From Candidatus Nealsonbacteria bacterium (lineage in GTDB: Bacteria > Patescibacteriota > Minisyncoccia > Minisyncoccales > MHMH01), in contig JACPGX010000001.1 in assembly GCA_016188865.1 (NCBI GenBank), positions 205,197-269,196 on the forward strand: a DNA stretch of 64,000 nucleotides, in the 5' to 3' direction. The position numbers and the translations under genes were made by a program. The first letter of the stretch is position 1. Every line of letters begins with the position of its first letter. Positions 164 to 57,621 of this stretch are shown piece after piece. Below the pieces are notes generated by a model. The model did no database searches and was not told where the DNA came from. It saw only the letters and a list, made by a program, of their open reading frames with translations.

Positions 164-899
164 ATTCTAAAATTATATTTTTAATTATTTCGAAGCCGGA
201 TTTCAACTCAGTTTTATATAAAATCCAATCTTCAACAGATTTTTTAATTTTATCGGAACTGCCGAAAAATTCTGTAACGAAATCTCTTTTTGTAACTGAC
301 GGAAAATTTGGTATTCCGATATAATCTAAATAGCTAGACCAGCGATATGATTCCAAAAATTTAACAGCTTCCTCAACATCTTTTACTCCCACTTCTTTCC
401 AGTTTTTTTCTAATAATTCAAGCGGATTAGTAAATATATAACAAATCAAAGCCATTAATTGTCTATCATCTTCCACGTGAACTGCTTTAAAACGACCCTG
501 GAATAAAGCGCCAATCCCTTTTCTATTATATTTTTCATTAAAGTATCCAGTATAACCATTAGATAATTTTTTCATGAAAAGAGAAATCCCGCCATCAACT
601 AATTGATGCAAAATTAAATGGTAGTGATTTGGCATCAAACAAAAGCTAATAATCTCTACTAGCGGCTCTCTTTTATCTTTACGATCAGATACACCGGTTG
701 AACCGGTGTATTTCTTATTTTCTTTACGGATTTCTATACGGTCACGCATCTTAACTAATTTTTTATCATTTAATTCATAAAGACAAAAAATAAATCTAAA
801 ATTATCAGAGATTTGCTGAAAAATATTTCTTCTTTCTACTCCCCTATTAAAAATATGATAAATCTGGCCAGTAATAAATTTGGGTCGTTTTATTGCCAT
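162..899 (-). CDS. REP-associated tyrosine transposase-like protein (IS200/Y1 HUH family), paralog 1
   Basis: HUH strand FCLMPNHYHLIL and Tyr helix CYIFTNP. N-terminus MAIKRPKF..GQIYHIFNRG aligns with the paralogs at 26070 and 50608. Start trimmed from 929 to ATG 897-899 by that alignment. Confidence 0.85.
   Translation of the reverse strand: MAIKRPKFITGQIYHIFNRGVERRNIFQQISDNFRFIFCLYELNDKKLVKMRDRIEIRKENKKYTGSTGVSDRKDKREPLVEIISFCLMPNHYHLILHQLVDGGISLFMKKLSNGYTGYFNEKYNRKGIGALFQGRFKAVHVEDDRQLMALICYIFTNPLELLEKNWKEVGVKDVEEAVKFLESYRWSSYLDYIGIPNFPSVTKRDFVTEFFGSSDKIKKSVEDWILYKTELKSGFEIIKNIILE
689..711. repeat. REP-1 hairpin, internal in-frame copy
   Basis: atacaccggtt-g-aaccggtgtat lies inside the RAYT-1 ORF and is translated KYTGSTGVS. 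Confidence 0.9.
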
Positions 900-923
900 A
901 CCTAATTTAATATACCACATAAG

Positions 924-946
924 ATACACCGGTTCAACCGGTGTAT
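924..946. repeat. REP-1 hairpin, 5'-flank copy (loop base c instead of g)
   Basis: atacaccggtt-c-aaccggtgtat lies 24 nt upstream of the RAYT-1 ATG. Confidence 0.9.
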
Positions 947-952
947 GTTGCG

Positions 953-12281: not shown

Positions 12282-13684
12282 ACACGTTTATTGTACCACC
12301 AAATAAAGCCAAACAGAATGAAATAAAAAACTATCAGCCAAAGCCAGTGCAAATTGCCCACAGCCATGGAAACTAACGGCATTTTGCTAAACCAATCAAC
12401 AATTTTCGTAATATATGTCAAAGAAAGCCAAACGGGCCAAGACAATAAAAACCCAAGAGGTTGCAAGATAATACCGAAAATTGCAAAAATAAAAATTAAG
12501 ATAGTAATTGGAGCCAAAAAGGGAACTATTAAAATATTAACAACAGGACTCAATAAGGATATTCTGCCAAAATTATAAGCTAAAATCGGCAAAGTAAAAA
12601 CTTGGGCCGAAAGAGTAGCAGATAAAGTGGTTCTTAATGGAAAAACTTTTGGATTAGGTAAAAGCCTTAGCCAATTTGAAAAATACGGCTCTAAATAAAT
12701 AAGGCCTAAAATGGCTAAAAAAGAAAGCTGGAAACCTACGTCTTTCGTCAAGAGAAAAGGATTTTGAACAAGCATAAAAGTTGCCGCAAAAAATACCGCT
12801 CTTGAGCCGGATGACATGCGTCCTAATTTTTTAGCTAAAATAAAAATAACGGCCATAATAAAAGCCCTGACAGCTGAAGCCTGGGCTCCGATCATTAAAA
12901 TGTAAAGAAAAAGCAAAACTATCGAAATATAAAACGGCGCAAAGGAAGATATTATAGAAGAAATAATGGTTATATTCATTCCGGAAACCGCCGCAATATG
13001 GCGGGTGCCGGTAATATTGAGCTTGTCTTTCCATTCTCGGGAAATATTAGATTCTTGGCCGAAAACTAATGCCTCCAAAAAACCTTCTTGCGGCGGCGAA
13101 ATAAAAGAACCGGCGGTATCTCTAAATTTATTTTTAAAAGATAAAATAATTTCCATTATCGGGTTGCCAAACCCGGAACTCATAAACTCAATTTTTGGAA
13201 AACTCATTACTGCCGTAATGCCGTCTTTTTTAAGATAATCACGATAGTTAAAATCATCGAAAACCGGCGGCATTTCCAAACGGCCAATAATTTTTAGTCT
13301 ATCCCCATAATTATATTTCGGATACCTCCCCGCCGTCACCAAAATCGGGCGAGAACCGTTCTCGCCCGATTTTATCACAAGCTTTATGCTAGCAGGCCTG
13401 ACATCGGGTTCTTTAACCACGATTCCGACAAACTCGACATTCCCTTCTTGGGGATAAACAATTTTTGACTCCGCCATCTGATACCGCCAAATTCCCAAAA
13501 CTAAAAACAGTAAGCAAAATCCGCCCGTAGCCAGTTTTTTATAACGCCAAAAAATTGAAATTAAAAATACTCCAATAATTAAAAAACCCAGTAAAAATAA
13601 CTGGGGCATAAAAATAAATGAACTCGCAAAAATTCCTCCTACAAACGCCAGACAAAAATACAAAAATATCCGCGACTTAGTCAT
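12248..13684 (-). CDS. comEC: ComEC/Rec2 DNA-uptake channel protein (no metallo-beta-lactamase domain)
   Basis: N-terminal TM plus OB-like region, HIAAVSGMNITI, many TM segments. Confidence 0.85.
   Translation of the reverse strand: MTKSRIFLYFCLAFVGGIFASSFIFMPQLFLLGFLIIGVFLISIFWRYKKLATGGFCLLFLVLGIWRYQMAESKIVYPQEGNVEFVGIVVKEPDVRPASIKLVIKSGENGSRPILVTAGRYPKYNYGDRLKIIGRLEMPPVFDDFNYRDYLKKDGITAVMSFPKIEFMSSGFGNPIMEIILSFKNKFRDTAGSFISPPQEGFLEALVFGQESNISREWKDKLNITGTRHIAAVSGMNITIISSIISSFAPFYISIVLLFLYILMIGAQASAVRAFIMAVIFILAKKLGRMSSGSRAVFFAATFMLVQNPFLLTKDVGFQLSFLAILGLIYLEPYFSNWLRLLPNPKVFPLRTTLSATLSAQVFTLPILAYNFGRISLLSPVVNILIVPFLAPITILIFIFAIFGIILQPLGFLLSWPVWLSLTYITKIVDWFSKMPLVSMAVGNLHWLWLIVFYFILFGFIWWYNKRVWQVQLKKPGW
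13341..13373. repeat. REP-3-like hairpin variant in-frame in comEC (aaaatcgggcgagaac-c-gttctcgcccgatttt)
   Basis: 33-nt perfect palindrome translated KSGENGSRPIL. It shares the core cgagaaccgttctcg with REP-3. Confidence 0.85.
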
Positions 13685-26030: not shown

Positions 26031-26057
26031 AATCTTACGAGGCGAAGCCTCGTAAAT
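26031..26057. repeat. REP-2 hairpin, 5'-flank copy (ttacgaggc-gaa-gcctcgtaa)
   Basis: Lies 12 nt upstream of the RAYT-2 ATG. Confidence 0.9.
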
Positions 26058-26069
26058 TCGTAAATTTTA

Positions 26070-44364: not shown

Positions 44365-45563
44365 TATCTTAAAATTTGAGCGAGATAAATTTTTTCTTCG
44401 GCTAGCATGTCAGCTACTATATTGGTAGGCAGATTAAGCCTTTTCGAGTACCAGAAAACTTTCATTAAATTAGGAAAAATACTTTCCAGTTTTTCCTGCA
44501 CCCTTACTTCACTGTAGCCATCGGGGTGTCTTTCATCATCAACATTTATTAAGCCCCCGGCATTAATAACATAATCTGGCGCGTAAAGAATTCCTTTTTT
44601 CATCAATAGTTTACCGGCAACAGAATCCTGCAGCTGGTTGTTAGCAGCGCCAGCCACAATCCGGCACCTTAAATTAGAGACAGTCTGTTTAGTGAGAATG
44701 CCCCCAGCGGCGCAGGGAGCAAAAATATCGCATTCTTGAGAAAAAATTTCTTCTTGAGCCACTACTTTGCTTAATTTCTTAAATTCCCCAAGCGCTTTCT
44801 CTTTAAGCTCTTCCTGAAAATGAGCTATCCTTCTCGGATCGATATCTGAGCCAATAATTTGCTTTACTCCTTCTTGATATAAAAATTCAGCCAATCGATA
44901 GCCGACTTTTCCTAAACCCTGAATGGCGACAGTTTTGCCTTCCAGCGGCCCCATATTCAAAAACCTTAAACAGGCTTTCATTCCGTAAACAATCCCCCGG
45001 GCAGTAACTGGTGATGGATCACCGCTGCCGCGCAATTTCCCGTAGCGATAGGTTTCCGGCAAGCCTGCCACAAAAGAAGTTTTCATCCTCATTAAACGAA
45101 CATCCTGCTCGTCAATATTCATATCTTCGCCGCCAATATATTCGCCTCTCAAGGCTTCAATTTCTTCCGCCAATTCCCATAGGAGAAAGTTGGTTTTATC
45201 TTCTCTAGGATTGCCCCAAACCACGCATTTGGCTCCGCCTTTTTTAATGCCAGCTATAGCTGCTTTATAAGTCATGGCTTTGGAAAGGCGAAGAACGTCG
45301 GTAATCGCCTCTTTTTCGTCTCGATATTGGAGCATACGGATTCCGCCGAGAGCCTGTTCCGCAATGGCTCGATTGTGAATGGCGATGGCCGTTTTTAATT
45401 TCACTTCGGGATGATAAAATAAATAAATTCTTTCGTGGCCCTCTTTTCTCATTACTTCGGCGATCCATTCCGCTTCTGGATAAGGCACTAAATCTGGCCG
45501 AACCTCAAGCTTTCTCTGGCTATTTTCCAGCATCCTTTCAAAGACGCCATTATTTTCTCCCAT
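44364..45563 (-). CDS. Glu/Leu/Phe/Val dehydrogenase family, leucine/valine-dehydrogenase-like
   Basis: GGIRM, KKGGAKCVV, and Rossmann motif GLGKVG. Own promoter TTGACA-16-TAGATT at 45613-45640. Confidence 0.85.
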   Translation of the reverse strand: MGENNGVFERMLENSQRKLEVRPDLVPYPEAEWIAEVMRKEGHERIYLFYHPEVKLKTAIAIHNRAIAEQALGGIRMLQYRDEKEAITDVLRLSKAMTYKAAIAGIKKGGAKCVVWGNPREDKTNFLLWELAEEIEALRGEYIGGEDMNIDEQDVRLMRMKTSFVAGLPETYRYGKLRGSGDPSPVTARGIVYGMKACLRFLNMGPLEGKTVAIQGLGKVGYRLAEFLYQEGVKQIIGSDIDPRRIAHFQEELKEKALGEFKKLSKVVAQEEIFSQECDIFAPCAAGGILTKQTVSNLRCRIVAGAANNQLQDSVAGKLLMKKGILYAPDYVINAGGLINVDDERHPDGYSEVRVQEKLESIFPNLMKVFWYSKRLNLPTNIVADMLAEEKIYLAQILR

Positions 45564-45680
45564 ATTTTGCCTCCTTAGCTACACGCTTTTACAAGGTGCT
45601 TAATCTATTTTTAATCTATCTCCTACAAATTTCTTGTCAAACCCTTCAGCGGACTCTGAGTAAATAAAAAGTCCCGAAGA

Positions 45681-46604
45681 CTAAGCTTGGGACTTTATTA
45701 AAGATAGTTTTTTAAGATAGTCCATTTGAGAATCAACACTTTTTTGAATTTCAGAAATTTTTTCTTTGATTAAATGCCTAAACCTTCCTTGCAGCCTTAA
45801 ATAATCATCAACGGGAATCTTATCGGGCATTTTGTTAATCACATATTTTTTCCCGCCAAAAACTTCGTAAAGCGGAAAAACTCTGGAAGCTACAGCTAAT
45901 CTTGATATTTCAATCGATAGATTTTCCGATAAGCGCCAGCCAGTCGGGCAAGGGGTAAACAAATGAATGAATCTGAAGCCCTGAATGTCTTTGGCTTTTC
46001 TGACTTTTTCCCGCAAATCATCAAGAAAAGCAACTGCTGCCGTAGCTACATAAGGAACGCCGTGGTCAGCCAAAATCCTTACGATATCCTTTTTAGCATC
46101 TTTCTTGCCTTCGGTTGTCACGGTTGTCCACGCTTCCCTGGGAGTGGAACCAGACTGCTGAATTCCCGTATTCATATAAGCTTCATTATCGTGGCAAAAG
46201 ACAAGAATATTTTCATTGCGGGTTGCTGCAGCCGATAAAGAACCAAAACCGATATCAAATGCGGCTCCGTCGCCCATCCATGGGACGACTAAAGCGTCCT
46301 GAATGCCGTAACAATCGAGCGCCATTCTCAAGCCGGTCGCCCTGTCAGGCGCTGACATGAATAAGCTGGCCATGTCAAACACTTTTTCAGCGTTTGCTTC
46401 AAAGCTGGCGCAAACGCTTTTGCAGGAAGCCGGAGTGACAAAAATAATGATCTTTTTCTTACTTTCCCCGAGCGAAGTCGAGGGGTCTTCAGCCAAAACG
46501 CTTAAAACTTGGCGCAACAATACAGGTTCTGCACAGCCCGGGCAAAAAGAATGTCCGGGCCAAAGCATTTCTTCTGCAGGTTTTGCATAAATTTGTTCTG
46601 GCAT
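45681..46604 (-). CDS. 2-oxoacid:ferredoxin oxidoreductase beta (TPP) subunit, second OFOR
   Basis: CPGCAE and GDGAAFDIG. Confidence 0.88.
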   Translation of the reverse strand: MPEQIYAKPAEEMLWPGHSFCPGCAEPVLLRQVLSVLAEDPSTSLGESKKKIIIFVTPASCKSVCASFEANAEKVFDMASLFMSAPDRATGLRMALDCYGIQDALVVPWMGDGAAFDIGFGSLSAAATRNENILVFCHDNEAYMNTGIQQSGSTPREAWTTVTTEGKKDAKKDIVRILADHGVPYVATAAVAFLDDLREKVRKAKDIQGFRFIHLFTPCPTGWRLSENLSIEISRLAVASRVFPLYEVFGGKKYVINKMPDKIPVDDYLRLQGRFRHLIKEKISEIQKSVDSQMDYLKKLSLIKSQA

Positions 46605-46606
46605 TT

Positions 46607-47746
46607 TTAACTCCTCCAGCGAATCATTCGAGGATTGTCTGATTTAAGAGCGTCTTCGATGTCTTCAACAATGTGCTCTGGTCTGATATCTTTGCCGCCC
46701 ATGCCGCGGATATAGTTAAAAATGGGAATATTTGAATTATACATAGCTGATTCAATCTCTTGGGCAAAAATTCCTTTGGCTCCATAACTCATCGACCTGT
46801 CAAAAACCGCAATTTTCTTACCCTTAGACAGCCAATATCTTAAAGCTGTTGAGGGAAATGGCCTAAACAAACGAAGCTTTAACAGGCCAACCCTATCGCC
46901 GTACAAATCAACCGCCTCTTTGGCAATGGAAGCAGTAATGCCTGCTGCCACTAAAATTAATTCCTGTTTTGGTTGAATCTTGTAGGGCATTACCAGACGA
47001 TAATTTCTGCCAAAAGATTTATTGAATGCAACCATTACTTGCTTGATTATTTTCGGAGCTGACCGCATTGCTTCAAAAAGCCTCTGGCTATGAACCGGCG
47101 TGCGCGAAGAGCCACTGAAAACATAAGGGTCATCCGGATTCAAGGGCAAGAGAGTATTTACGGGCGGTAAAAATCCGTCAATTGCTTCCTGACTAGGAAT
47201 ATCGATTATTTCCGATAAATGCGAAAGAATAAATCCTTCATAGCAGACCATCGCCGGGATTTTTACAGTTTCAGTTATTTTAAAAGCCTGCAAAACAGTA
47301 TCAAAAACTTCCTGAACGTCTTCGCAATATAATTGAATCCAGCCGGTGTCTCTTTGCGACAAACTATCCTGAAAATCAGGCCAAATATTCCAAGGCAAAC
47401 CTAGAGAACGATTGGCTACGGCTAAAACAACGGACGCTCTTTCTTTAGCTGCCGAATGCATAGACTCGCTCATTAAAGTCAAACCGTGCGAGCTGGTAGC
47501 GGTCATAACTCTCAGTCCGAGAAGGGCAGCTCCAACGCAAGCTTCCATTGCCGCATGCTCATTATACATCCAGCGGGTTTGCGACCCGCTCTCTCCGAGA
47601 AACTCTATGAGTTTTTCAACCGCTCCCGTACTTGGAGTAATGCAGTAATTCGGTGAAGCTTGGACTCGGGCAGCAAAACCAGCCAAAGCAACAGCGGTAT
47701 TGCCGTCTAAAAGCATTTTTTTACCGAGCATTTCACTCGCCTTCAT
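46607..47746 (-). CDS. 2-oxoacid:ferredoxin oxidoreductase alpha subunit, second OFOR
   Basis: GNTAVALAG..ITPST. Start set to MKASEM, preceded by GGAGGAAGAAA. Confidence 0.88.
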   Translation of the reverse strand: MKASEMLGKKMLLDGNTAVALAGFAARVQASPNYCITPSTGAVEKLIEFLGESGSQTRWMYNEHAAMEACVGAALLGLRVMTATSSHGLTLMSESMHSAAKERASVVLAVANRSLGLPWNIWPDFQDSLSQRDTGWIQLYCEDVQEVFDTVLQAFKITETVKIPAMVCYEGFILSHLSEIIDIPSQEAIDGFLPPVNTLLPLNPDDPYVFSGSSRTPVHSQRLFEAMRSAPKIIKQVMVAFNKSFGRNYRLVMPYKIQPKQELILVAAGITASIAKEAVDLYGDRVGLLKLRLFRPFPSTALRYWLSKGKKIAVFDRSMSYGAKGIFAQEIESAMYNSNIPIFNYIRGMGGKDIRPEHIVEDIEDALKSDNPRMIRWRS

Positions 47747-49244
47747 TTTCTTCCTCCATAACAATCACTCCCCTCGGGCATTCTTTGGCGCAAATACCGC
47801 AGCCCTTGCAGTAATCATAATCAACAATGTATGGTTTTTTTGCATTGCCGGTTTTTTTAACAGCCGGTTCCGGGCAAAAATTAAAACAATTTTCGCATTC
47901 GCGGCAAAGTCCGCAAGAAAAGCATCTTTTAACCTCTTTTTTCAAATCAATTTTTCTTGGCTGTGGTTCAAAATAAGCAAAGTTAATGCTGTCGCGGTTA
48001 ATCCTGATTTTTGGCTTAGCCCGAAGATGCGGCTTTCCATTCAGAAAGTTAATAATCTTTCTGGCGCTTTCTTTGCCGGAATTAATAGCTTGAGCAACTG
48101 TTTTAGGCCCCAAAAGGAAATCGCCTCCGGTAAACAAATAAGGTTTTTGGCCCTTAACAATCTTTTCCCAAAATGGCGATTTTTCCTGGCCGACGGCAAA
48201 AATTAAAAGATCGCATTCGTCCGTGAAATTAGAAATTGGCGACTGAAATTCTACAGTTAATCTTGGGGTATTCTCTGAAATTTTTACCGGCAGAGCCAAC
48301 GGCCGAAATTCAGCCCCGGCTTGCCGGGTTTTCTCAATTTCCTGCTGGCTGGCTTTCGCTTTATCGCCCCGATAAAAAATTGATGCTTTCGCCCCAAGTT
48401 GCAAAGCCACTCGAGAGCAGTCCATGGCTGTGTTGCCGGCGCCGACAATAAATACGGTTTTATCGACTAATGGCGCTATATCTCCGTAAGTTGCTTTTTT
48501 CAAAAAATCAATGGCAGTTATAACGCCTGCTTGACGAACTCCGGGAATATCCAGCGTTTTGCCAAAAGTAAATCCGGGCGCCAAAAAAATAGCTGAAAAT
48601 TCTTTTTCTATTTCTTTGAAATTATTTTCAGTAATTTCAGTATCAAGACGAAAATCAATTCCCTGAAAATGAAGGATCAGTTCCCTGTCAAGAATTTCTT
48701 TGGGCAGACGGTCTTCGGGAATGCCATACCTTAAAAGTCCGCCTAATTTGCTCTCTTTTTCAAAAACTGTAACAAAGTATCCTTTCAATCTTAAAGAATA
48801 AGCGCAGGTGAGGCCGGCAGGGCCGGAACCTACTATTGCCACTTTTTTATCTTTAGCAACAGCCGGGAAATCAATATGAAATTTGCTCTTTATTGCCAAG
48901 TCGCCTAAAAACTTTTCAGTCTGGCTAATAGCAACAGGCGTATCGAAATCTTTGCGCAAAAAAGCGCAGCCTTTCTCGCAAAAAGCAGGGCAAACTCTGG
49001 AAACAGAAGCCGGCAAAGGATTTTGCAAGAGCAATTTGCGCATAGCTGTTTTAGGGTTTTTATCCTTAAGACTTGCCAGCCAGCCTCTGATATCTTGATG
49101 AATCGGGCAGGAAATCATGCAGAGTGAGATAGTCTCTGTCTCCTGCAAATATCTCGGCTTTTGCTTTAATTCAGCATCGCGCCAAGAACCGGTTTTCCTG
49201 GAAAGAGTATTTTCTCTAAAAATAGGCCTTTCAATTTCAGTCAT
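47733..49244 (-). CDS. Fusion of a GltD-like NAD(P)H-dependent FAD/FeS oxidoreductase with a 2x[4Fe-4S] ferredoxin (OFOR delta) domain
   Basis: N-terminal Cys clusters, VAIVGSGPAGL and VGAGNTAMD, then a C-terminal CFSCGLCRECENC..CP and CKGCGICAKECP. Confidence 0.8.
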   Translation of the reverse strand: MTEIERPIFRENTLSRKTGSWRDAELKQKPRYLQETETISLCMISCPIHQDIRGWLASLKDKNPKTAMRKLLLQNPLPASVSRVCPAFCEKGCAFLRKDFDTPVAISQTEKFLGDLAIKSKFHIDFPAVAKDKKVAIVGSGPAGLTCAYSLRLKGYFVTVFEKESKLGGLLRYGIPEDRLPKEILDRELILHFQGIDFRLDTEITENNFKEIEKEFSAIFLAPGFTFGKTLDIPGVRQAGVITAIDFLKKATYGDIAPLVDKTVFIVGAGNTAMDCSRVALQLGAKASIFYRGDKAKASQQEIEKTRQAGAEFRPLALPVKISENTPRLTVEFQSPISNFTDECDLLIFAVGQEKSPFWEKIVKGQKPYLFTGGDFLLGPKTVAQAINSGKESARKIINFLNGKPHLRAKPKIRINRDSINFAYFEPQPRKIDLKKEVKRCFSCGLCRECENCFNFCPEPAVKKTGNAKKPYIVDYDYCKGCGICAKECPRGVIVMEEENEGE

Positions 49245-49245
49245 C

Positions 49246-49806
49246 TTACGCCTCCTTTAAAGGTTGAGCCAGCTCATAAGCTTCCTTGGTCGCCTCAATG
49301 TTTTCTTTTTTATATGCCGGAATTTTTTCTTGAATAATCTCTATTAAATCAGCGAGACTAAAAAGATTGGTCATTTTAGCAAAGGCTCCCAGCATGATGG
49401 TATTTAACCTATTCAAGTTATGATATCTGGCAATGGCTGAAGCATTAAATGCCACTACTCTGTAGCCGGGGTATAAACGAGATAAATCTTGAGATGTCTT
49501 GCGGCTGTTAACAATCAAACAACCCGAAGGCTTCAAATTATCTTTCAAATCCCTGGTCTTTAAAAGATCTGCTCCTAAAACTATGAAATAGTCGGCTTGC
49601 TTTATTTGGCACTTCAATCGTATGGGTTTTGAATCAGATCTGACGAAGCCTTCGACCGGTTGACCAATTCTTTCTGAACCAAAAAAGGGGAAACACTGAA
49701 GGCTGTATTCTTTATCACCTAACGCCCTAAAAAGAGCCTCGGCTAAAATTTCTGAAGCTAACCTAGTGCCTTTTCCGCCGCGCCCAAAAATCGTTATTTC
49801 TATCAT
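49246..49806 (-). CDS. 2-oxoacid:ferredoxin oxidoreductase gamma subunit, second OFOR
   Basis: IFGRGGKGTRLASEILA. Confidence 0.85.
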   Translation of the reverse strand: MIEITIFGRGGKGTRLASEILAEALFRALGDKEYSLQCFPFFGSERIGQPVEGFVRSDSKPIRLKCQIKQADYFIVLGADLLKTRDLKDNLKPSGCLIVNSRKTSQDLSRLYPGYRVVAFNASAIARYHNLNRLNTIMLGAFAKMTNLFSLADLIEIIQEKIPAYKKENIEATKEAYELAQPLKEA

Positions 49807-49851
49807 TTATCAAAGACCTCCTTATTCAATTAACAAAGGACTCATCTTTTC

Positions 49852-49880
49852 AAGATAGTCCCTGCAATTTTTAATGTCAA
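49852..49880 (-). promoter_or_regulatory. OFOR-operon promoter TTGACA-17-TATCTT
   Basis: -35 is revcomp of 49875-80 and -10 is revcomp of 49852-57. An AAGGAGG RBS follows. Confidence 0.6.
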
Positions 49881-50045
49881 CTATCTGGGAAAATCTCTAA
49901 AAAATTGCTCGGCTTTCCTCGACAGGACTCGAGATAAGTCGCTTAAAACAAGTAAAAAGCTACCACTGAATAATTTTGTTGGTAGCTTTATTTTCTTCTT
50001 TAAGATATTGGTCTCTTAAAATACTCCGTTATCCTTTCAAAATTT

Positions 50046-50444
50046 TCATCTCCAGCGCGGATTTTCCTCTCCTGAAGCCTTTATCTTGGCGTTTTCTTTA
50101 TCCCCCCTTAAACGACTTTCTATTGATATCCCTTCAATATAATATGACTCGCCTCTGTCATGCGGCTCCAGTTTAGCATTCCATGAGATTATTTCTAATT
50201 CGGGATGGGCTTTTTCAAAGGCATCGAGAACTAAAAATACTGTCTCGTAGTAATCCGACCACTCATAAGTCCGAACATGCATGGGCAGAAATGTGCGATT
50301 TCCTACGGTGATGCCGGCTTTTAGATTTATTGATCCTTTGAAAAAAACGCTAGAATTTTCGTTTTCTTGAACGCAAGCTATTAAGCCGGCCGTTAAAACG
50401 ATCAGGATGGCGAAGAAAAGAATAACGCTCCTTCTTGTAATCAC
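50046..50444 (-). CDS. Small membrane-anchored or secreted protein (GTG start)
   Basis: AAGGAGG RBS and signal anchor. Promoter TTGACG-16-TATAAT upstream. Confidence 0.55.
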   Translation of the reverse strand: MITRRSVILFFAILIVLTAGLIACVQENENSSVFFKGSINLKAGITVGNRTFLPMHVRTYEWSDYYETVFLVLDAFEKAHPELEIISWNAKLEPHDRGESYYIEGISIESRLRGDKENAKIKASGEENPRWR

Positions 50445-50576
50445 CTTTTCCTCCTTTACCCCCTTATTCCTTTATTTGTTAAATCAATGTATTATACGCC
50501 CATATAAATATCCGTCAACACCCAGCATTTATTTACTTCAAAAATACTCAAAAAGCTACCCGGCAAAAAACTGACG

Positions 50577-50607
50577 AAAACTGACGAGAACCGTTCTCGT
50601 CAGTTTT
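50577..50607. repeat. REP-3 hairpin, 3'-flank copy (aaaactgacgagaac-c-gttctcgtcagtttt)
   Basis: Ends one base before the RAYT-3 stop codon. Preceded by a partial duplicate, ctgacgaaaa. Confidence 0.9.
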
Positions 50608-51333
50608 TTATTCGATGGCAACACGTTGAGAATCAGCTAATTCTTTTTTGAACTGAAGCCAATCGTTAACGAATCTTTGCCCTTCGCCCGCTCCGCCGAC
50701 TGTTTCAAATAAAAACTCTCTGCTGGTTACTGAAGGAAAATTCCTCTTGCCTAAATAGTCAGAATAACTTGACCATCGGTAATTTTCTAAAAATTCTATT
50801 ATTTCTTGCAATTTCCTGCCGCTAATTCCCCTTTCCTTCCAATTCTGAACTAAAATTGCCACTGGGTTTGTATGAATATAAACGAAAACTGTTATTAATT
50901 GTTTATCATCTTTAACGTGGACTATTTTATATTTTCCCTGAAACAGGTGGCCACTTCTTTTATATTTTTTATTATAATATCCGCCGTATCCCGCCCCAAT
51001 TTTTCTCATAAACTTGCTTATTCCTCCATTTCTTAACTGTCTTACCAGCAGATGCGCGTGATTCGGCATCAAACAAAACGCTAAAATCTCCAATAAACAT
51101 TCCCTGCCCGTATGTCTTTTATACGAACTATCTAAACTGACGAGAACGGTTCTCGTCAGTTTTTGTTCTTGACGATAGTATGAAGAAGTAGGTTTTTCAT
51201 CATTGAATTCAAATAAATCATGAATCATTCTAAAATAATCTTTTTGATCTTTGAAAAGCTTTAACCCTTCTACGGCTCTAATAACGATGTGATAAATTTC
51301 GCCGTTTACTAATGGTGGTCGTTTTATTGGCAT
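50608..51333 (-). CDS. REP-associated tyrosine transposase-like protein (IS200/Y1 HUH family), paralog 3
   Basis: GEIYHIVIRA, FCLMPNHAHLLV, VYIHTNP. Confidence 0.85.
   Translation of the reverse strand: MPIKRPPLVNGEIYHIVIRAVEGLKLFKDQKDYFRMIHDLFEFNDEKPTSSYYRQEQKLTRTVLVSLDSSYKRHTGRECLLEILAFCLMPNHAHLLVRQLRNGGISKFMRKIGAGYGGYYNKKYKRSGHLFQGKYKIVHVKDDKQLITVFVYIHTNPVAILVQNWKERGISGRKLQEIIEFLENYRWSSYSDYLGKRNFPSVTSREFLFETVGGAGEGQRFVNDWLQFKKELADSQRVAIE
51134..51162. repeat. REP-3 hairpin, internal in-frame copy (centre g)
   Basis: aaactgacgagaac-g-gttctcgtcagttt, translated KLTRTVLVSL. Confidence 0.9.
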
Positions 51334-51364
51334 AAAACTGACGAGAACCGTTCTCGTCAGTTTT
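51334..51364. repeat. REP-3 hairpin, 5'-flank copy
   Basis: Starts at the base next to the ATG (51331-33), leaving no room for an SD sequence. Confidence 0.9.
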
Positions 51365-51401
51365 ATTATAACGGAATAAATTTAAATGAAAAGCCCTGAG
51401 C

Positions 51402-52733
51402 TTAGCTCGGGGCTTTTGTTGCTTTTGCCAAAGCTTTTTCAAACTTGGCTACAATTTTATCTATATCATCTTTAGTTACAATTAATGGAGGCAGAAAACG
51501 GATAATGGGATTCCTTTGAGCGTGACCGGCAGCCAAAGGAAGAATGCCTTGCTCCACACATTCTTGAAGCACCGCGTTTCTCGAGGCAGGATTCGGTCCG
51601 CCCGATTCATCAACAAATTCTACTCCAACCATCAGCCCCATCCCCCGCACATCTCCAATAAAATGATTCTTAATTCCTTTCAACTTCTCAATAAAATATG
51701 CGCCATTTTCTGCAGCTCTCTTAATCAATTTTTCTTCTTCGAGTACTTCAAGGGTTGCTTTCGCAGCTGCCCAGCCAAGCGGCCCTCCGCCAAATGTGGT
51801 TGAATGTCGACCGGCTCGGGAAAAATCCCAATCCCGCGGAAAAACAATAGCTCCAATGGGAACGCCCGAACCAAGCTTCTTGGCTAAACAAATGATATCG
51901 GGTATTGCGGCGAAATGTTCAATCGCAAACATCTTGCCAGTTCTGCCCAAGCCAGTTTGCACTTCATCAGCGACTAAAGCCCAGTCATATTTCTGGCAAA
52001 GACGGTGAAGATCGTGTATTGCTAAGAGACTGGGTACGACGAATCCGCCCTCTCCCTGAATCGGCTCTATAATCACCCCGTTTATTTCGTCAGGATCACA
52101 AAATCGACCGAGATACTCTTGCTCAATAAAACGAATGCAGAGTTGGGCGCAATCTTCCGGCTTTTTCTCGTAAGCGCAATGCCGACAATCAGGATATGGC
52201 AAATGAATCACATCAAGAGCTTTGGGAAAATCTCTCTTATGCAATGATTTACTGGAAGCCACATCCAGCGCATAGCCGAATCTGCCGTGAAAGGCGCCGA
52301 GAAAACTGATAAATTTCTTTCGCTGCGGCCTGCGGTCAATTAAAAGTTTTATTGCAGCATTATTCGCTTCACCGCCCGAGGAGCAAAAATAAACTCGCCA
52401 ATCTCTTTCAGGAAAACTATTATGAGTTATTCTCGCCAATTTCTCAGCTGCCTCAACTTGGGAAGAATTGTAAACATCGGTGCCTATGCAGGCCATTAAC
52501 TTATCTGCTTGCTGTTTTACCGCTTCCACAACTTTAGGATGGCAATGCCCGATGTCAGCGATGCTTACTTGGGTAAAACAATCAATAAATTTATTGCCGT
52601 CGGCATCCCAGACATAAATGCCTTTTCCCCTTTCAACTGTTACGGGAAAATTTATATCGTGAGTAGTTGTCGCCAAAACTTCCTTATGCCTTGCAATCAA
52701 CCCCAATGTTTTAGAGCCGGGAATCTCTTTCAT
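51402..52733 (-). CDS. Class III PLP aminotransferase (4-aminobutyrate/omega-amino-acid type)
   Basis: DEVQTGLGRTGKMFA. Confidence 0.88.
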   Translation of the reverse strand: MKEIPGSKTLGLIARHKEVLATTTHDINFPVTVERGKGIYVWDADGNKFIDCFTQVSIADIGHCHPKVVEAVKQQADKLMACIGTDVYNSSQVEAAEKLARITHNSFPERDWRVYFCSSGGEANNAAIKLLIDRRPQRKKFISFLGAFHGRFGYALDVASSKSLHKRDFPKALDVIHLPYPDCRHCAYEKKPEDCAQLCIRFIEQEYLGRFCDPDEINGVIIEPIQGEGGFVVPSLLAIHDLHRLCQKYDWALVADEVQTGLGRTGKMFAIEHFAAIPDIICLAKKLGSGVPIGAIVFPRDWDFSRAGRHSTTFGGGPLGWAAAKATLEVLEEEKLIKRAAENGAYFIEKLKGIKNHFIGDVRGMGLMVGVEFVDESGGPNPASRNAVLQECVEQGILPLAAGHAQRNPIIRFLPPLIVTKDDIDKIVAKFEKALAKATKAPS

Positions 52734-52846
52734 CTTTTACCTCCTGTTGCATTGTCAAATAACTCATTTTATCTAAACACGCTAACAAAAAACTTGCAAG
52801 AAAAACAAAAAGAGCCCTTCGATAAACTCAGGACTCTTTTTTATTT

Positions 52847-53983
52847 TTACTTTAAAAATTTTCTTGAAAGAACTTCCAGCTGGACTTCGGAGGCGCCTTC
52901 ATAAAGAGTTAAAGCTCTGGCGTCGCGGAACATTCTCTCAACCGGAGTTTCATCCATGTAGCCCATGCCGCCGTGAATCTGTAAAGCGTCATAAGTTATT
53001 TTCTGAACCATCTCGGTGGCAAACCATTTGGCTCTGGCTGCAGCCAATTTGACATCATGGCCTTGGTCTTTTTGCCAGGCAGCATACCAGGTAAGCCAAC
53101 GGCTGGCTTCAATTTGGGCTTCCATTTTAGCTAATTTATGCTGGCAATCTTGAAGATCAATCAATCTCTTGCCAAACATCTGACGATTTCTGGCGTAGTT
53201 TACGGCTTCTTCAAAAGCGCCTTGAGCTATACCTACGGCTTGGGCCGCGATATTGATTCTGCCGCCATTTAAAGTCTGCATAGCCACTTTCCAGCCGTCG
53301 CCTTCCTGGCCAAGCATATTGGCATGGCTGACTTGGCAGTCAGTCAAAACTATCGGGGAAGTCGGCGAACAGTGAAGCCCCATTTTCTTTTCAATTTTCG
53401 GCACTGAAAATCCCGGAGTGGAAGTTTCCACGATGAAAGCGGAAAGCCCATGATGAGGATGATCGCTGGTTCTGGCTATTAAAACGCAAACTTTCGCTTT
53501 AGCGACATTGGTAATGAATTGCTTGGTACCATTAATCACCCAACCATTATCATTTCTTACAGCCCGAGTTTTGATTCTCGTCACATCAGAGCCGGCATCC
53601 GGCTCTGTTAAAGCATAACATCCCAATGCCTTGCCTTGAGCCAAAGAAGCAAGATATTTCTTTTTTTGATCTTCATTGCCCCACTCCAAAATGGGAGCTC
53701 CGGATAAGGAATTATTGGCTGACATAATCAAAGCAAGCGAAGCCCAAACTCTGGCCAACTCTTCTTCGGCAATGGCATAAGCTAAAATATCCGAGCCCAT
53801 GCCGCCGTACTGCTCTGGAACAAATATACCCATAAAGCCCATTTCGCCGAGTTTTTCAACAAGCTCTTTGGGAAATTTTCCTTTTTCTTCAAATTCTTTA
53901 ATCCTTGGCCTGACTTCTTTTTCGGCAAATTCTCTCATCAAGTTGCGGATACCCGCATGCTCTTCCGACAACCGAAAATCCAT
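52847..53983 (-). CDS. Acyl-CoA dehydrogenase
   Basis: YALTEPDAGSD, and QIHGGMGY..YEGASEVQ. Confidence 0.93.
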   Translation of the reverse strand: MDFRLSEEHAGIRNLMREFAEKEVRPRIKEFEEKGKFPKELVEKLGEMGFMGIFVPEQYGGMGSDILAYAIAEEELARVWASLALIMSANNSLSGAPILEWGNEDQKKKYLASLAQGKALGCYALTEPDAGSDVTRIKTRAVRNDNGWVINGTKQFITNVAKAKVCVLIARTSDHPHHGLSAFIVETSTPGFSVPKIEKKMGLHCSPTSPIVLTDCQVSHANMLGQEGDGWKVAMQTLNGGRINIAAQAVGIAQGAFEEAVNYARNRQMFGKRLIDLQDCQHKLAKMEAQIEASRWLTWYAAWQKDQGHDVKLAAARAKWFATEMVQKITYDALQIHGGMGYMDETPVERMFRDARALTLYEGASEVQLEVLSRKFLK

Positions 53984-53994
53984 TTCCGCCTCCC

Positions 53995-55914
53995 TTATAA
54001 AGATTTCTCTATCAATTCCAGCAAGTCAATCACTGAAATCTCTTCGCCCTGTAGCATTTGCAGACACCAGGGACAGCTGACCGCCGCTATATTGGCTTCC
54101 GTTTCCTTAGCATCTTTAAGGCGCAGTTGGTTAACTCTTTTTTGAGGATCTTCCTCTTGCCACATTCTGCCGCCGCCTCCGCCGCAGCATAAACTTTGTT
54201 TTTTGGAACGCTTCATTTCAACTATTTTTTCAGCGCAAACGGCTTTTAGAATTTCTCGGGGAGCTTCAAAAATACCATTATAACGGCCAAGATAGCAAGA
54301 ATCATGATAGGTTATTTTACCAGATATTTTCTTGCTTACTTTAAGTTTTCCTTCTTTGATGAGCTTGGCTATGAATTCGGTGTAATGATAAACTGCGAAA
54401 TCAGCGCCAAAATCAGGATATTCATTTTTTAAAGTATTAAAGCAGTGAGGGCAAGCGGTAATAATTTCTTTCACGCCGTAACGATTCAAAATTTCAATAT
54501 TCTTTTTGGCCAATTCCTGAAATAAATATTCGTTGCCCATTCTTCTTGCCGGGTCCCCGCAGCAAAGCTCTTCAGAGCCAAGTATGCCGAAGTTAACCCC
54601 GGCTTTTTCCAATATTTTAACCAGAGAAACAGCTGCTTTGGTATTCTGCTCATTCAAAGCCGCGGTGCAGCCGACCCAGTAAAGAACATCTATTGCTCTA
54701 TCTGAAGAAAGCGTTTTGACCTTTAAATCCTTTGCCCAATCAGTTCTTGAAAGATTGGTTCCCCTCCAAGGATGTCCCCGGGCCTCAATGCTTTCCAAGG
54801 CTCGCATAGCTGAATCGGGCAACTGGGATTTTTCAAGCACTAAATTGCGCCGCATTTCCACAATTTTATCAATATGGGTATTTAAAACAGGACACTGCTC
54901 TTGGCAGGCGCGGCAGGTAGTGCAAGACCAGAGATCATCTTCCTTAATTGCTCCGCCAATTAAATTATCGTTATTTTGATTCAGCAGAGGCTTTTTTAGA
55001 TTTTGAATCATTTCTTTTGGGTTAAGCGATTTTCCGCTCAAATAGGCCGGACAAGCTTCCTGACAGCGGCCGCAGACAACGCAGGCGTAAAGATCGAGCA
55101 GCTGCTTTTGGCTGAAATCTTCAATCTTTGCCGCGCCGAAAGTTTCCGTATTTTCCAAATCAAGAGTTTCCAGGGCCCCTTTGGGCCGTGAACTTTTCAG
55201 AAAAATATTGAGAGGGCCGGCTAAAATGTGAAGATATCTGGAATAAGCTATGAAAACCAAAACGAACAAAACCGTCAGCCAATGCGCCCAGAAAAAAGTC
55301 ATGTTGGCTATTGCCAGCGCGGACAAGCTGAAATCCTTAAAAAAATAACTTAGGGCTGAACTAAGCGGCGGTAAAAGAGTGCTTTCGCTGGTAGCTTCTT
55401 TCAGTAAATGCGTTACGGGATGCAGAAAAACTGTGACTAAGATAATCAATGCCTCAAAAGTCTGCTCTCCTTTAAGCCGAGGCGGTCGCACAACATATCT
55501 TCGCAGAATTCCCCAAAGGGCTGCCAGCATGATAAAAGGAGCTGCCATGTCCATCACCCAAGAGTAGTAAAAGAAAAGCTTGGTGTTTTCCATTGCTCCT
55601 GACAAACCGAAGCCTGCTCCGATGATGATATATAGAAAATAATATCCGACAAAAATCAGAAATCCCCATGCCATAAAAATATGGCCGAGGCCGGCTCTGT
55701 CTTTCAGAGATATGGACTTTAACTGGCGCCATTGCCCGACAAGATAAGCTAAAACAAGCAATATCCTTTTGAGCGCGCTATTCTTTAAGTTATGATTTTC
55801 TTTCTTACCCCGGCTCAAAAAACCGTAGAGCCGGTATATTCTGAAAAAGAAAAGGCCGAAAGCTATCAGGGTCAAACCCCAGAAAAAAATATAGAACATC
55901 GAATCCCTCCGCAT
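53995..55914 (-). CDS. Membrane FeS oxidoreductase (HdrD/GlpC-like: TM domain + 2x[4Fe-4S] + two CCG domains)
   Basis: About 5 N-terminal TM segments, CVVCGRCQEACP, CTTCRACQEQCP, and CCG motifs. Confidence 0.8.
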   Translation of the reverse strand: MRRDSMFYIFFWGLTLIAFGLFFFRIYRLYGFLSRGKKENHNLKNSALKRILLVLAYLVGQWRQLKSISLKDRAGLGHIFMAWGFLIFVGYYFLYIIIGAGFGLSGAMENTKLFFYYSWVMDMAAPFIMLAALWGILRRYVVRPPRLKGEQTFEALIILVTVFLHPVTHLLKEATSESTLLPPLSSALSYFFKDFSLSALAIANMTFFWAHWLTVLFVLVFIAYSRYLHILAGPLNIFLKSSRPKGALETLDLENTETFGAAKIEDFSQKQLLDLYACVVCGRCQEACPAYLSGKSLNPKEMIQNLKKPLLNQNNDNLIGGAIKEDDLWSCTTCRACQEQCPVLNTHIDKIVEMRRNLVLEKSQLPDSAMRALESIEARGHPWRGTNLSRTDWAKDLKVKTLSSDRAIDVLYWVGCTAALNEQNTKAAVSLVKILEKAGVNFGILGSEELCCGDPARRMGNEYLFQELAKKNIEILNRYGVKEIITACPHCFNTLKNEYPDFGADFAVYHYTEFIAKLIKEGKLKVSKKISGKITYHDSCYLGRYNGIFEAPREILKAVCAEKIVEMKRSKKQSLCCGGGGGRMWQEEDPQKRVNQLRLKDAKETEANIAAVSCPWCLQMLQGEEISVIDLLELIEKSL

Positions 55915-55966
55915 GTATTTTCAAAGTACCGCATCTAATGACTTCTAACACGAAGAAAAAACTCGG

Positions 55967-55996
55967 TCAACAAAAAAGGACGCTAGGCGTCCTTTG
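55967..55996 (-). terminator. Terminator/-35 cassette, copy 1 (caacaaaaaaggacgctaggcgtcctttg)
   Basis: On the minus strand this reads AAAGGACGC-CUA-GCGUCCUUUUUU, followed directly by GTTGAC. Confidence 0.75.
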
Positions 55997-56004
55997 GTTA
56001 TTGT

Positions 56005-56163
56005 TCATCTTTTAACCGGAACGGGCACTTTTTCGGGCATTGGCGTTTTTTCCGGTACGGGGCTCGAAGGCTCCGGTTTGGTTCTGGGAACTCTTCTGGG
56101 AATTCTTACCGGTTCTTCTGTAGGAATAGTTTCCCTACGGTTATTTTCTGCGGAATCAAGCAT
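56005..56163 (-). CDS. Pro-rich 52-aa ORF (not in the supplied ORF track)
   Basis: AGGAGG lies 6 nt upstream of ATG 56161-63. The ATG overlaps the upstream stop (AATGCTTGA). Terminator lies 10 nt downstream. Confidence 0.4.
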   Translation of the reverse strand: MLDSAENNRRETIPTEEPVRIPRRVPRTKPEPSSPVPEKTPMPEKVPVPVKR

Positions 56164-57517
56164 TTTCTTCCTCCTTTTTTTGCTGATAACGCTTTTGGTA
56201 TTCTACGCTTTGGTCTGGAAAATTTTTGTAATCTATGAAAGGCTCTCTTTCTTGGTCTGGAGGCAAAAATTCAGAACAAATCTTTTTGCCTTCCAAAACT
56301 AAACGGATATCAGTGGCCTTATCAACAACCAATCTTTGCACTTCGCGAATAAACTTATTGCCCAGAGGAACATTACCTTCATCGGCTTCCCTTTGAAGAA
56401 TAACTGCCTCAATTTTCCTAAGGTAGGGCAAAAGCCGAGACCAGGAATTGTCTATTGCATATAAATCATTTAACCATTCTTTGTCAGGGTAAAGGCATTC
56501 TTCTAAAAGATACTTAAGGGATTCTTTTCTGGCCAAATTGTATTTTTCCTGTCCGGGAATCTCATAAATAGCTTCGGGATTAAGCAGGGAGTTAAACTTT
56601 CTTAAAATTTGTACCAATTCCGCTTCAAAATTTTCGTACAGCGAAATGATAGTTGAATGAACTGGCGTCACGTTAAGCGAGCTTCTTTCTGGCTGGGGAT
56701 ATTTCCAGTAAGCAGTGGTTAAAAGCAAGCCCAAATTAAGATATTGCAAAAAATAAATCAATTGAGCCAAGTTTCCCTGGCTTATTTCCGGAGATACATG
56801 GAAAAGATAATCAATCCGATGCCGAGCTATATTAATTTCATTCAATGCTTTAACTTCTGCGCCCCTGATGACTAAGCCGTAAGAAGCTCCATGGTCTCTT
56901 TTGGGCACATCTTTAAATGTTGTAAAATGATCGAGGTTAACAGAAATAATAAACAAAGCTAAGGCAATAAACTTGGCGCGATGCTGATATTTATTAAAAC
57001 CAGTATCAAAACCAACTGATATTTGTATTTCGCCTGCCTTAATGAGCCTTGCTTTTATTTGGCTGGCCAATGCTTGGGAATCGACTGTCGGCTGAAAACA
57101 GTGCTTTTCTCTTCCTTGGCCGGGATAAATTTTAGCCCCTAAAGTCACAAAAGATAAAAGCTGCCGGCTATTATTTAGAGAAGAAAATATGATTGAACCT
57201 GGCCAGTAAGGCGAATTAGCTAAAGCTTGGGCTGCTGCCTCACGGACACCAGGGTCTGGATCATATTTTGAGGCCTTCTTTAATGACGGGATTGCTTCCA
57301 GAGAGCCGATTACTCCCAAGGCCTCGGCTGCTTTCTCGCGGACAAAATAATACTGATCTGTTTCCAAAACTTCGATTAAAGCTTTGGTTGCTTCCGAAGA
57401 GCCGATTACTCCCAAGGCCTTAGCTGCTTCGTAACGGCTAAAATTATCTCCCTTGTTTAATTGATGCAAAAGACTTTTAATACTGGCCTTACTCGCCTTT
57501 TCTTTCTTATTTTCCAT
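56156..57517 (-). CDS. HEAT-repeat (PBS-lyase type) protein with ~330-aa unknown C-terminal domain
   Basis: Repeated AAxALGVIGSxEA units. Start trimmed to MENKKEK, because the longer ORF runs through its own promoter. Confidence 0.65.
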   Translation of the reverse strand: MENKKEKASKASIKSLLHQLNKGDNFSRYEAAKALGVIGSSEATKALIEVLETDQYYFVREKAAEALGVIGSLEAIPSLKKASKYDPDPGVREAAAQALANSPYWPGSIIFSSLNNSRQLLSFVTLGAKIYPGQGREKHCFQPTVDSQALASQIKARLIKAGEIQISVGFDTGFNKYQHRAKFIALALFIISVNLDHFTTFKDVPKRDHGASYGLVIRGAEVKALNEINIARHRIDYLFHVSPEISQGNLAQLIYFLQYLNLGLLLTTAYWKYPQPERSSLNVTPVHSTIISLYENFEAELVQILRKFNSLLNPEAIYEIPGQEKYNLARKESLKYLLEECLYPDKEWLNDLYAIDNSWSRLLPYLRKIEAVILQREADEGNVPLGNKFIREVQRLVVDKATDIRLVLEGKKICSEFLPPDQEREPFIDYKNFPDQSVEYQKRYQQKKEEENA

Positions 57518-57557
57518 CGCCGTCATTCCTCCACAAATTTCAATGTACTCTAATAAC

Positions 57558-57586
57558 TTAATAGCACTAAGGGAAAACCCGGTCAA
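57558..57586 (-). promoter_or_regulatory. Promoter TTGACC-17-TATTAA
   Basis: The -35 box directly follows the REP-3-like hairpin. Confidence 0.6.
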
Positions 57587-57590
57587 CAAA

Positions 57591-57621
57591 AAAACTGACG
57601 AGAACCATTCTCGGCAGTTTT
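57591..57621. repeat. REP-3 hairpin, solo degenerate copy (two mismatches) acting as a terminator
   Basis: aaaactgacgagaac-c-attctcggcagtttt. Confidence 0.8.

Follow-up and report, generated by a model that had tools for sequence, protein, structure and literature searches.

In a 64,000-nt stretch of a genome of Candidatus Nealsonbacteria, from the candidate phyla radiation (contig JACPGX010000001.1 of assembly GCA_016188865.1, positions 205,197 to 269,196 of the forward strand; hereafter the window), a RAYT-like gene, which we call paralogue 3 (P3), carries three copies of a perfect palindrome of its own, REP-3, named after the repetitive extragenic palindromic (REP) sequences. One copy adjoins the start codon, one adjoins the stop codon and one lies in frame within the gene. 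Our main result is that this internal copy is, as judged by comparing relatives, a conserved and co-evolving feature of the whole gene family, a point overlooked in an earlier interpretation made from the letters of the DNA alone (the sequence-only reading). The triad of upstream, internal and downstream copies is general in the family. Our literature searches turned up neither a RAYT open reading frame (ORF) that contains a cognate REP nor a description of this Patescibacteria family.

Exact matches to AAACTGACGAGAACNGTTCTCGTCAGTTT lie at 50578-50606, 51134-51162 and 51335-51363, and a copy with two mismatches lies at 57592-57620; 100 shuffles gave an expectation of 0. All copies fold strongly as RNA, and the loop base of the internal copy is the complement of the loop base in both flanking copies. 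The sequence-only reading had the 5' copy begin on the base adjoining the ATG, and this is correct (51334-51364 next to the ATG at 51333-51331); the pairing even extends into the ATG, with 17-nt arms at 51332-51348 and 51350-51366. Conservation of the N-terminal M-P-x-K-R-P in 67 homologues marks this ATG as the true start. The same reading let the 3' copy end one base before the stop codon. The adjacency stands but not the spacing, since the stop codon TAA (minus strand, 50608-50610) directly touches REP-3 (50577-50607). Three further claims were borne out, namely that the internal copy is in frame, that a half-site duplication lies beside the 3' copy and that a degenerate solo copy is followed by a -35 box. 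The duplication, an exact tandem repeat at 50567-50576, allows the folded RNA to pair in a second register with a U-run at its end, and comparable partial-arm duplications adjoin 6 of 162 family hairpins. The solo copy lies about 6 kb from the P3 gene and 50 nt past the stop of a small ORF (57671-57958, minus strand); it is followed by seven T and then by TTGACC-17 nt-TATTAA (57586-57558).

Two other RAYT-like genes in the window, paralogues 1 and 2 (P1 and P2), show the same triad with private palindromes. The palindrome of P1, ATACACCGGTT.AACCGGTGTAT, is found at 921-949, 689-711 (in frame) and 133-163, and that of P2, AATCTTACGAGGC...GCCTCGTAAGATT, at 26031-26058, 26257-26285 and 26783-26811. 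The internal copies of the three genes occupy one position in the protein alignment, despite only 44-49% identity of P1 and P2 to P3.

To see how far the arrangement extends, 80 related loci were collected from species-representative genomes, nearly all of them metagenome-assembled genomes (MAGs) of Patescibacteria by record title, and family counts were made over 83 loci. The upstream, internal and downstream regions of each locus were compared for identical strings of at least 12 nt, with pairs of regions from mismatched loci as control. Upstream and internal regions shared such a string in 66 of 83 loci (mismatched pairs, 13/400), upstream and downstream regions in 66 of 79 (7/380) and internal and downstream regions in 52 of 79 (4/380). 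With a threshold of at least 10 nt, all three pairs of regions matched in 55/79 loci. A perfect stem of at least 9 bp was present in the linker zone of 36/80 genes, compared with 0/190 equal-sized control windows elsewhere in those genes. The internal copy has its centre at a median distance of 185 nt from the ATG and ends about 57 nt before the HUH motif, while the 3' copy starts at a median of 2 nt past the stop codon. The 5' copy ends at a median of 19 nt before the ATG. Therefore, the hairpin touching the ATG, which the sequence-only reading emphasized, is a special trait of the P3 clade, including locus L081, and not a general one. The hairpins follow a common grammar, with a sequence that is private to the locus, an A-rich base, a G-R-n-G-T-Y apex and a loop of usually 1 nt; the conserved positions are the apical and basal ones, and the private positions lie between them. 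A fixed orientation rule, with the internal copy inverted relative to the 5' copy, was considered and dropped: the internal copy is often inverted, but the orientation of the internal and 3' copies is inconsistent.

The protein segment that receives the internal copy is a linker. In the AlphaFold (AF2) model of P3, residues 59-72 are the only internal segment with a predicted local distance difference test (pLDDT) value below 50, and this is where the hairpin-encoded peptide lies. Across the homologue alignment the linker is hypervariable in sequence and length and its flanks are strongly conserved. This indicates that the palindrome dictates the peptide and that the protein tolerates it. At locus L092 the protein is identical to those of L090, L093 and L095, and one synonymous T-to-C change removes a base pair from the internal stem; polymorphisms that disrupt the stem thus segregate in populations. 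Truncated relatives that might have represented excision products were rejected as such, since P0041 is a shorter gene call and the L074 linker is a run of N at an assembly gap.

On comparison of relatives, the three copies change in concert between orthologues with a fixed chromosomal position. Between P3 (CTGACGAGAAC) and P0008 of locus L081 (CATACGAGAAC), proteins with 76% identity, the arms have changed: P0008 carries AAACATACGAGAAC.GTTCTCGTATGTTT at all three sites, with the 5' copy abutting the ATG there too, and two positions differ in the left and right arms of every copy, within the limits of the contig, which ends inside the 3' hairpin. In the linker peptide of P0004 the exchange of K...S for N...R fits a compensatory change, as in other close relatives (inferred from the codons). 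RAYT orthologues lie directly downstream of greA in three species, at L083 (this genome), L103 and L090. L083 and L103 have GTCGAGAAC.GTTCTCGAC and L090 has GTCGGGAT.cca.ATCCCGAC, each locus with its own motif in all three copies, and the arm variants TAGG and TGAG are recombined among copies in both orientations. These orthologues are 73% identical, compared with 65% for the neighbouring GreA proteins. The gene context was likewise constant throughout the 24 contigs read for P0064 (holB-RAYT-frr) and the 24 read for P0014 (PBP2-greA-RAYT). Paralogues within one genome are old and 44-73% identical, and their hairpins differ.

We found no transposition as a unit, in the form of near-identical copies or several contexts, among the paralogues and contexts examined, and no relatives of the P3 family in the IMG/VR viral collection. 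Homologues of the aminotransferase gene upstream of P3 in other Nealsonbacteria and Niyogibacteria have other downstream neighbours (rpsB-tsf or an ATP-grasp gene), and among those aminotransferase loci there was no alignable orthologous empty site for P3. In the 64-kb window neither the P1 palindrome (REP-1) nor that of P2 (REP-2) has copies beyond its triad, and REP-3 has one extra, decayed copy.

P3 is a RAYT-like HUH/Y1 enzyme. It matched Pfam PF01797 (Y1_Tnp) with 6e-11 (43 bits, cut-off 23), and P1 and P2 also scored above this cut-off (33-34 bits). H92 and H94 of the HUH motif, Y152 and N156 are invariant in 67 sequences and P157 is nearly invariant (at least 90%). The catalytic motif is Y152-x3-N156-P157, which we take to be the RAYT form of the tyrosine motif. 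The structure model (pLDDT 82.6; predicted template modelling score, pTM, 0.81) had as its top Foldseek match 4ER8_A (E 2e-4, target TM 0.71), that is, the E. coli RAYT in complex with a REP hairpin, followed by the TnpA proteins of IS608 and ISDra2 with probability 1.00. The initial label 'RAYT paralog 3' therefore holds, given the Y1_Tnp match, the fold and the at least three paralogues in the window. The three window paralogues, however, scored 45 (P3), 37.5 and 35.8 bits with the NCBIfam RAYT equivalog NF047646, below its cut-off of 80. The P3 protein is 100% identical to a protein from a Candidatus Nealsonbacteria MAG that is annotated 'transposase' and whose contig, of 271 kb, encodes at least two further paralogues. 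The genome studied here carries at least five diverged RAYT-like paralogues.

The signals for expression at these loci were predicted from the DNA. A Shine-Dalgarno (SD)-like 4-mer at -16..-4 is present in 1/83 family loci, compared with 12/41 other genes of the window, and the 31 nt upstream of the P3 ATG consist of the hairpin and contain no SD sequence, as had been claimed for this gene. It is likely that P3 uses an unusual route of initiation, and in many relatives leaderless expression is plausible. Promoter-like sequences fall into two classes. In the first, the -10 box abuts or shortly precedes the hairpin, as in P3, P2 and L081, where TTGTAA-17-TACAAT has the same geometry as in P3. 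In the second, the -35 box lies inside the hairpin and the -10 box ends 6-9 nt before the ATG, and a leaderless mRNA is predicted. P1 belongs to this second class, with TTGAAC-17-TATATT, then 9 nt to the ATG and a predicted leaderless mRNA. A -10-like hexamer at this distance was found in 26/83 loci, P1 included, and -35-like hexamers occur inside many 5' hairpins of the family. Because the predicted -10 box of P3 abuts the hairpin, its mRNA probably starts inside the left arm. The predicted transcript would fold into a 5' stem of 8-9 bp, followed by AGUUUU-AUG, and the full stem of 14-15 bp forms only with a transcription start upstream. The sequence-only reading had offered a start beside a 15-bp stem or on a leaderless or processed mRNA; the leaderless option is plausible for many relatives, whereas the stem predicted for P3 has 8-9 bp and not 15. 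Its proposal that REP-3 is reused as a terminator fits two copies. The 3' copy matches a terminator-like pattern (50607-50577, minus strand, consensus scan), and the solo copy, which lay outside the terminator scan, has the predicted terminator form of a stem followed by a T7 tail. As a family trait it does not hold, with a T-rich tail in only 22% of 3' copies (2% of internal copies).

Hairpins of the same class also occur in other genes and between genes (Table 1). One lies in comEC (ORF 12248-13684, minus strand), where it forms a 9-aa insertion that is absent from most ComEC homologues. Two other species (L096 and L097) have an insert at the same comEC site with compensatory arm differences, …TCATACGAGAAC… and …CAGTCGAGAAC…, so that palindromy has been kept in three species. 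The basal sequences of the L096 and L097 inserts match the RAYT triad types of L081 and of L083/L103, from other metagenome samples. For the insert in the window the link to a RAYT, paralogue P0097 on the same contig, is made through the P0097 linker peptide NRARSVLAL only. The mfd/TRCF gene (ORF 23997-26024, plus strand) contains an in-frame doublet, GAGGTCgGACCTC-ccaag-GAGGTCcGACCTC, at 24526-24556, just after the CarD/TRCF domain motif and with complementary loop bases as in a BIME or REPIN; its hairpin type is carried by no RAYT in the window. The in-frame hairpins of comEC and mfd thus behave as low-copy REPs that are able to sit in ORFs and keep their palindromy. The apical motifs of the solo palindromes at 28894-28923 and 961-987 match types of RAYT loci elsewhere (L050, and L001 and L003, respectively).

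Table 1. Positions of the P3 locus, its paralogues and related palindromes, numbered from the first letter of the window
Feature	Position	Strand	Basis or remark
P3 gene, RAYT-like HUH/Y1 enzyme, 241 aa	50608..51333	minus	ORF, Pfam, invariant residues, AF2 fold
REP-3 5' copy, abuts ATG	51334..51364 with A/T ends		folds at -18.2 kcal/mol, z -6.0
REP-3 internal in-frame copy, KLTRTVLVS (residues 58-66), low-confidence linker	51134..51162		pattern match, ORF
REP-3 3' copy, abuts stop, terminator-like on minus strand	50577..50607 with A/T ends		pattern scan
Exact 10-nt tandem duplicate of outer half-arm, aaaactgacg	50567..50576, repeats 50577-50586		sequence
REP-3 degenerate solo copy, 2 mismatches, intergenic	57592..57620		folds at -18.6 kcal/mol, z -3.4
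Promoter-like TTTTCA-16-TATAAT, -10 abuts 5' hairpin	51365..51392	minus	consensus scan, predicted only
P1, 47-49% identical to P3	162..899	minus	start picked by homology (MAIKRP)
P1 3' copy, AAAAATACACCGGTT.AACCGGTGTATTTTT, overlaps stop codon	133..163		palindrome search
P1 internal in-frame copy (YTGSTGVS)	689..711		palindrome search
P1 5' copy, -35-like TTGAAC inside	921..949		palindrome and promoter scan
P2, 44% identical to P3	26070..26783	plus	homology
P2 5' copy, aatcttacgaggc gaa gcctcgtaaatt, then 8-nt half-arm duplicate (cgtaaatt)	26031..26066		palindrome search
P2 internal in-frame copy (QSYEASPRKI), loop ttc = complement of flanking loop gaa	26257..26285		
P2 3' copy, one-base overlap with stop codon	26783..26811		palindrome search
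Solo perfect palindrome AAAATCGGGCGAGAAC.GTTCTCGCCCGATTTT, 16-bp arms, CGAGAAC class, in frame in comEC (KSGENGSRPIL)	13341..13373		palindrome search
Solo CGAGAA-class palindrome AAAGAGCGAGAAcacTTCTCGCTCTTT, terminator-like after gene upstream of P1	961..987		palindrome search
Solo REP-like palindrome AAAAAGTTGGACATTAATGTCCAACTTTTT, terminator-like after topA	28894-28923		palindrome search

Some other features of the window were noted beside these. Two near-identical terminator hairpins, aaaggacgcNtagcgtccttttttgttg, follow consecutive genes at about 58575-58600 and 58105-58130 (minus strand) and form a separate small repeat family. Tandem imperfect palindromes, tacgagatccggactcgta and tacgagtccgggtctcgta, lie at 58040-58090 (minus strand), upstream of ORF 57671-57958, and resemble the L053 hairpin (CACGAGTCCGGGACTCGTG). 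Rfam and tRNA scans found a single tRNA-Leu. The ORF at 41367-42080 (minus strand, 237 aa) has a RAYT-like size but is unrelated, being an NYN-domain protein (4e-16). SD-like motifs precede 2/30 genes in 1-44000 of the window, many of which have a -10-like box before the ATG, and GGAGG precedes 10/11 genes in 44300-64000, where GC is 0.40-0.44 compared with 0.37-0.43 in the left part. The latter part encodes acyl-CoA dehydrogenase, ETF-like and PFOR-like proteins and the aminotransferase, and may be an acquired metabolic island. A chimeric window, which could also give such a split in SD usage, is unlikely because the aminotransferase is 65-80% identical to homologues in MAGs labelled Nealsonbacteria or Niyogibacteria. 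Assembly breaks were seen at palindromes, with an N-run scaffold gap in the linker of L074 (2200-2420) and with contigs of L081 and L082 that end inside the 3' hairpin of P0008.

How these observations fit together is a matter of interpretation. The explanation that we favour, with a confidence only somewhat above even, is that of a RAYT-like family that is vertically inherited and behaves as domesticated, without a sign of recent transposition, in which each gene is a module with three copies of a private palindrome that evolve in concert. The encoded enzyme would have the palindromes of its locus as cognate hairpins, which is the most economical assignment because a locus-private protein is paired with a locus-private palindrome. 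Repeated copy exchange would keep the three copies, and some unlinked ones, alike, either through enzyme-mediated cleavage and rejoining at the hairpin feet or through short-tract conversion between copies in either orientation. The 5' copy may overlap the promoter or form a 5' stem in an mRNA without an SD sequence, and the 3' copy may sometimes act as terminator. The internal copy is most likely a maintained third site through which the enzyme would bind its own gene, for autoregulation or for anchoring in cis. In the HUH initiators pT181 RepC and phiX174 protein A the nick site is known to lie inside their own coding sequence. A bolder version, which we consider possible but doubtful, holds that the enzyme recognises a private hairpin present in its own ORF and at both gene ends, and that it itself keeps its cognate copies identical by cutting at hairpin feet and swapping cassettes, including the comEC copy. 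If true, specificity could drift and re-synchronise across sites without transposition of the gene, and the internal site would tie the enzyme permanently to its substrate and provide for autoregulation in cis.

Several points weigh against this explanation. Recognition of the hairpins by the enzymes of this family is a predicted role. A substrate of the E. coli RAYT must have a GTAG tetranucleotide and a mismatch in its stem, and the enzyme does not act on a perfect palindrome (PMC3333891). In the P3 family the hairpins have perfect stems and no GTAG, so recognition, if it occurs, must differ. Being perfect, the palindromes could instead be double-stranded operator sites, and local gene conversion alone could homogenise three repeats within 800 bp. 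The loops of the three copies have no conserved orientation relative to one another, which speaks against a strictly strand-specific mechanism. In about 20% of the loci no internal copy is recognisable, and the copy is therefore not indispensable. Extra copies of the cognate hairpin occur at 10/78 loci in 245 kb of flanks; dispersed copies being so few, the substrate population of the enzyme, if there is any, must be small. The promoters were predicted by scanning AT-rich DNA for a consensus, which gave 12 sites where 5.3 were expected.

The main rival is that of a frozen accident, in which a REP once inserted in frame in a tolerant loop of an ancestral RAYT gene, in the manner of REPs and Rickettsia palindromic elements in other genes, and has since been functionless and passively refreshed. 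Its conservation would then only reflect the process that homogenises cognate hairpins, be it conversion or enzyme action, and that repeatedly renews the nearest copy. In-frame REPs are indeed tolerated in this genome, in comEC (9-aa insert) and mfd, and are documented in other bacteria (PMC3733652); the internal copy sits in a segment that is modelled as disordered, and the loci without an internal copy fit this account as well. Palindromes are, however, prone to deletion, yet the site has been kept in proteins down to 38-45% identity, and a passive relic does not readily give the excess of linker stems over the control windows. Also, decay is seen in the solo REP-3 copy at a distance of 6 kb but not in the internal copy, which is perfect. 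We consider a frozen accident unlikely on these grounds.

Two further explanations fit less well, and we regard both as improbable. One is an active, minimal IS200-type insertion sequence, of which the flanking hairpins are the ends, the unit of about 790 bp moves by peel-and-paste and the paralogues are old products. The hairpins do bracket the ORF tightly, there are several paralogues per genome, relatives at 72-76% identity lie in differing contexts, and many family contigs are about 1 kb long or end at a hairpin, which suggests assembly breaks at repeats. Such an element would leave the internal copy unexplained, and paralogues within a genome are only 44-73% identical, each with a different hairpin. 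The same gene keeps a single context across 24 contigs from many samples, orthologues remain beside greA across species in which GreA is only 65% identical, and viral contigs (IMG/VR) contain no relatives. The nearest fold is that of the E. coli RAYT and not of IS200/IS608 TnpA, and the tyrosine motif is of the RAYT form. The other explanation takes the palindromes as RNA or DNA structures for expression only, with their identity within a locus as a by-product of local gene conversion. It accords with the terminator pattern of the P3 3' copy, the stem and seven T of the solo copy, the -35-like hexamers inside many 5' hairpins and the strong RNA folding of all copies. T-rich tails are nevertheless confined to 22% of the 3' copies, and a stable hairpin inside an ORF has no obvious role in expression, the more so as internal copies avoid T-tails (2%). 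Expression signals would also not account for the same private types at the unlinked comEC site with their palindromy kept, nor for a hairpin grammar that is shared family-wide and follows the protein family.

These findings bear on the function of RAYTs in their hosts and on the means by which REPs remain uniform and co-evolve with the enzyme. The P3 family offers a compact natural test system, with an enzyme gene and three copies of the presumed substrate in about 0.8 kb. It comprises hundreds of natural specificity variants and several orthogonal pairs per genome, and its orthologues at fixed loci display the hairpin changing in concert. The family would allow tests of the rules of hairpin recognition, of enzyme-driven concerted evolution and of self-regulation of an HUH enzyme via a site in its own ORF. 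There are also consequences for annotation and assembly, as the genes of this family are labelled plain 'transposase' in these Patescibacteria MAGs. Contig ends and a scaffold gap fall at the palindromes, which also add short peptides to housekeeping proteins. With contigs breaking at hairpins and many family contigs of about 1 kb, these genes probably fragment Patescibacteria MAGs.

Among known systems the P3 locus most resembles the REPtron, the E. coli TnpA-REP (RAYT, yafM) with its flanking REP/BIME sequences (Nunvar 2010, PMC2817692; Ton-Hoang 2012, PMC3333891; Messing 2012, PMC3479197). Both have an enzyme of HUH/Y1 type (the solved fold closest to P3 is the E. coli RAYT, 4ER8) and a gene that is flanked on both sides by its own palindromes, is not mobile as a unit and is inherited vertically; in both, different paralogues are paired with different palindrome families. 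RAYTs in general show vertical inheritance, a fixed locus and housekeeping-like conservation, and RAYT groups vary in the abundance of flanking repeats (PMC5581495), while in some subclasses of Y1 enzymes the C-terminal domain is large and REPs are absent (PMC6006769). The P3 family differs from the REPtron in its third, in-frame copy inside the ORF. Its palindromes are perfect, with stems of 11-26 bp, loops of 1-3 nt, A/T-run flanks and no GTAG or CTAC, and very few dispersed copies were found (one solo REP-3 in 64 kb, and the low count in the 245 kb of flanks). The protein has a linker insertion of about 30 aa and a C-terminal extension of about 80 aa, and P3 falls below the RAYT equivalog cut-off (45 vs 80 bits). 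At least five paralogues occur per small genome, and there is no SD sequence. With the IS200/IS605 elements (IS200, IS608, ISDra2) the locus shares the Y1 HUH fold and a unit of about 0.8 kb with one gene between two similar hairpins; in contrast to these, there is no evidence of recent transposition here, the palindromes are perfect, an internal copy is present, and the tyrosine motif and best fold match of P3 are of the RAYT type.

The internal copy itself recalls other systems. The origin of pT181 lies within repC and that of phiX174 within gene A, and in such HUH initiators, too, the gene for the enzyme contains its cognate hairpin or nick site, with tight linkage and cis preference. Those are single-site origins of plasmids and phages, whereas the locus described here is chromosomal, has three sites and shows no signs of a replicon. 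Intragenic REPs and Rickettsia palindromic elements (Di Nocera 2013, PMC3733652) are also in-frame palindromes translated as a tolerated peptide, for which comEC and mfd are the counterparts here. In P3, however, the host gene is that of the presumed mobilising enzyme, the site is conserved family-wide and the insert co-varies with the copies that flank the gene. In TIRtrons a RAYT-like gene (TIRYT) lies in long terminal inverted repeats (PMC3733652), and thus between inverted repeats as here; the flanking copies of the P3 family also act as inverted repeats of 25-35 bp because each palindrome is self-complementary. The repeats differ from those of TIRtrons in that each is itself a hairpin-forming palindrome and a third copy is found inside the gene. 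The P3 locus is best described as a RAYT/REPtron variant in which three hairpin sites, one of them in the gene, form a co-evolving module.

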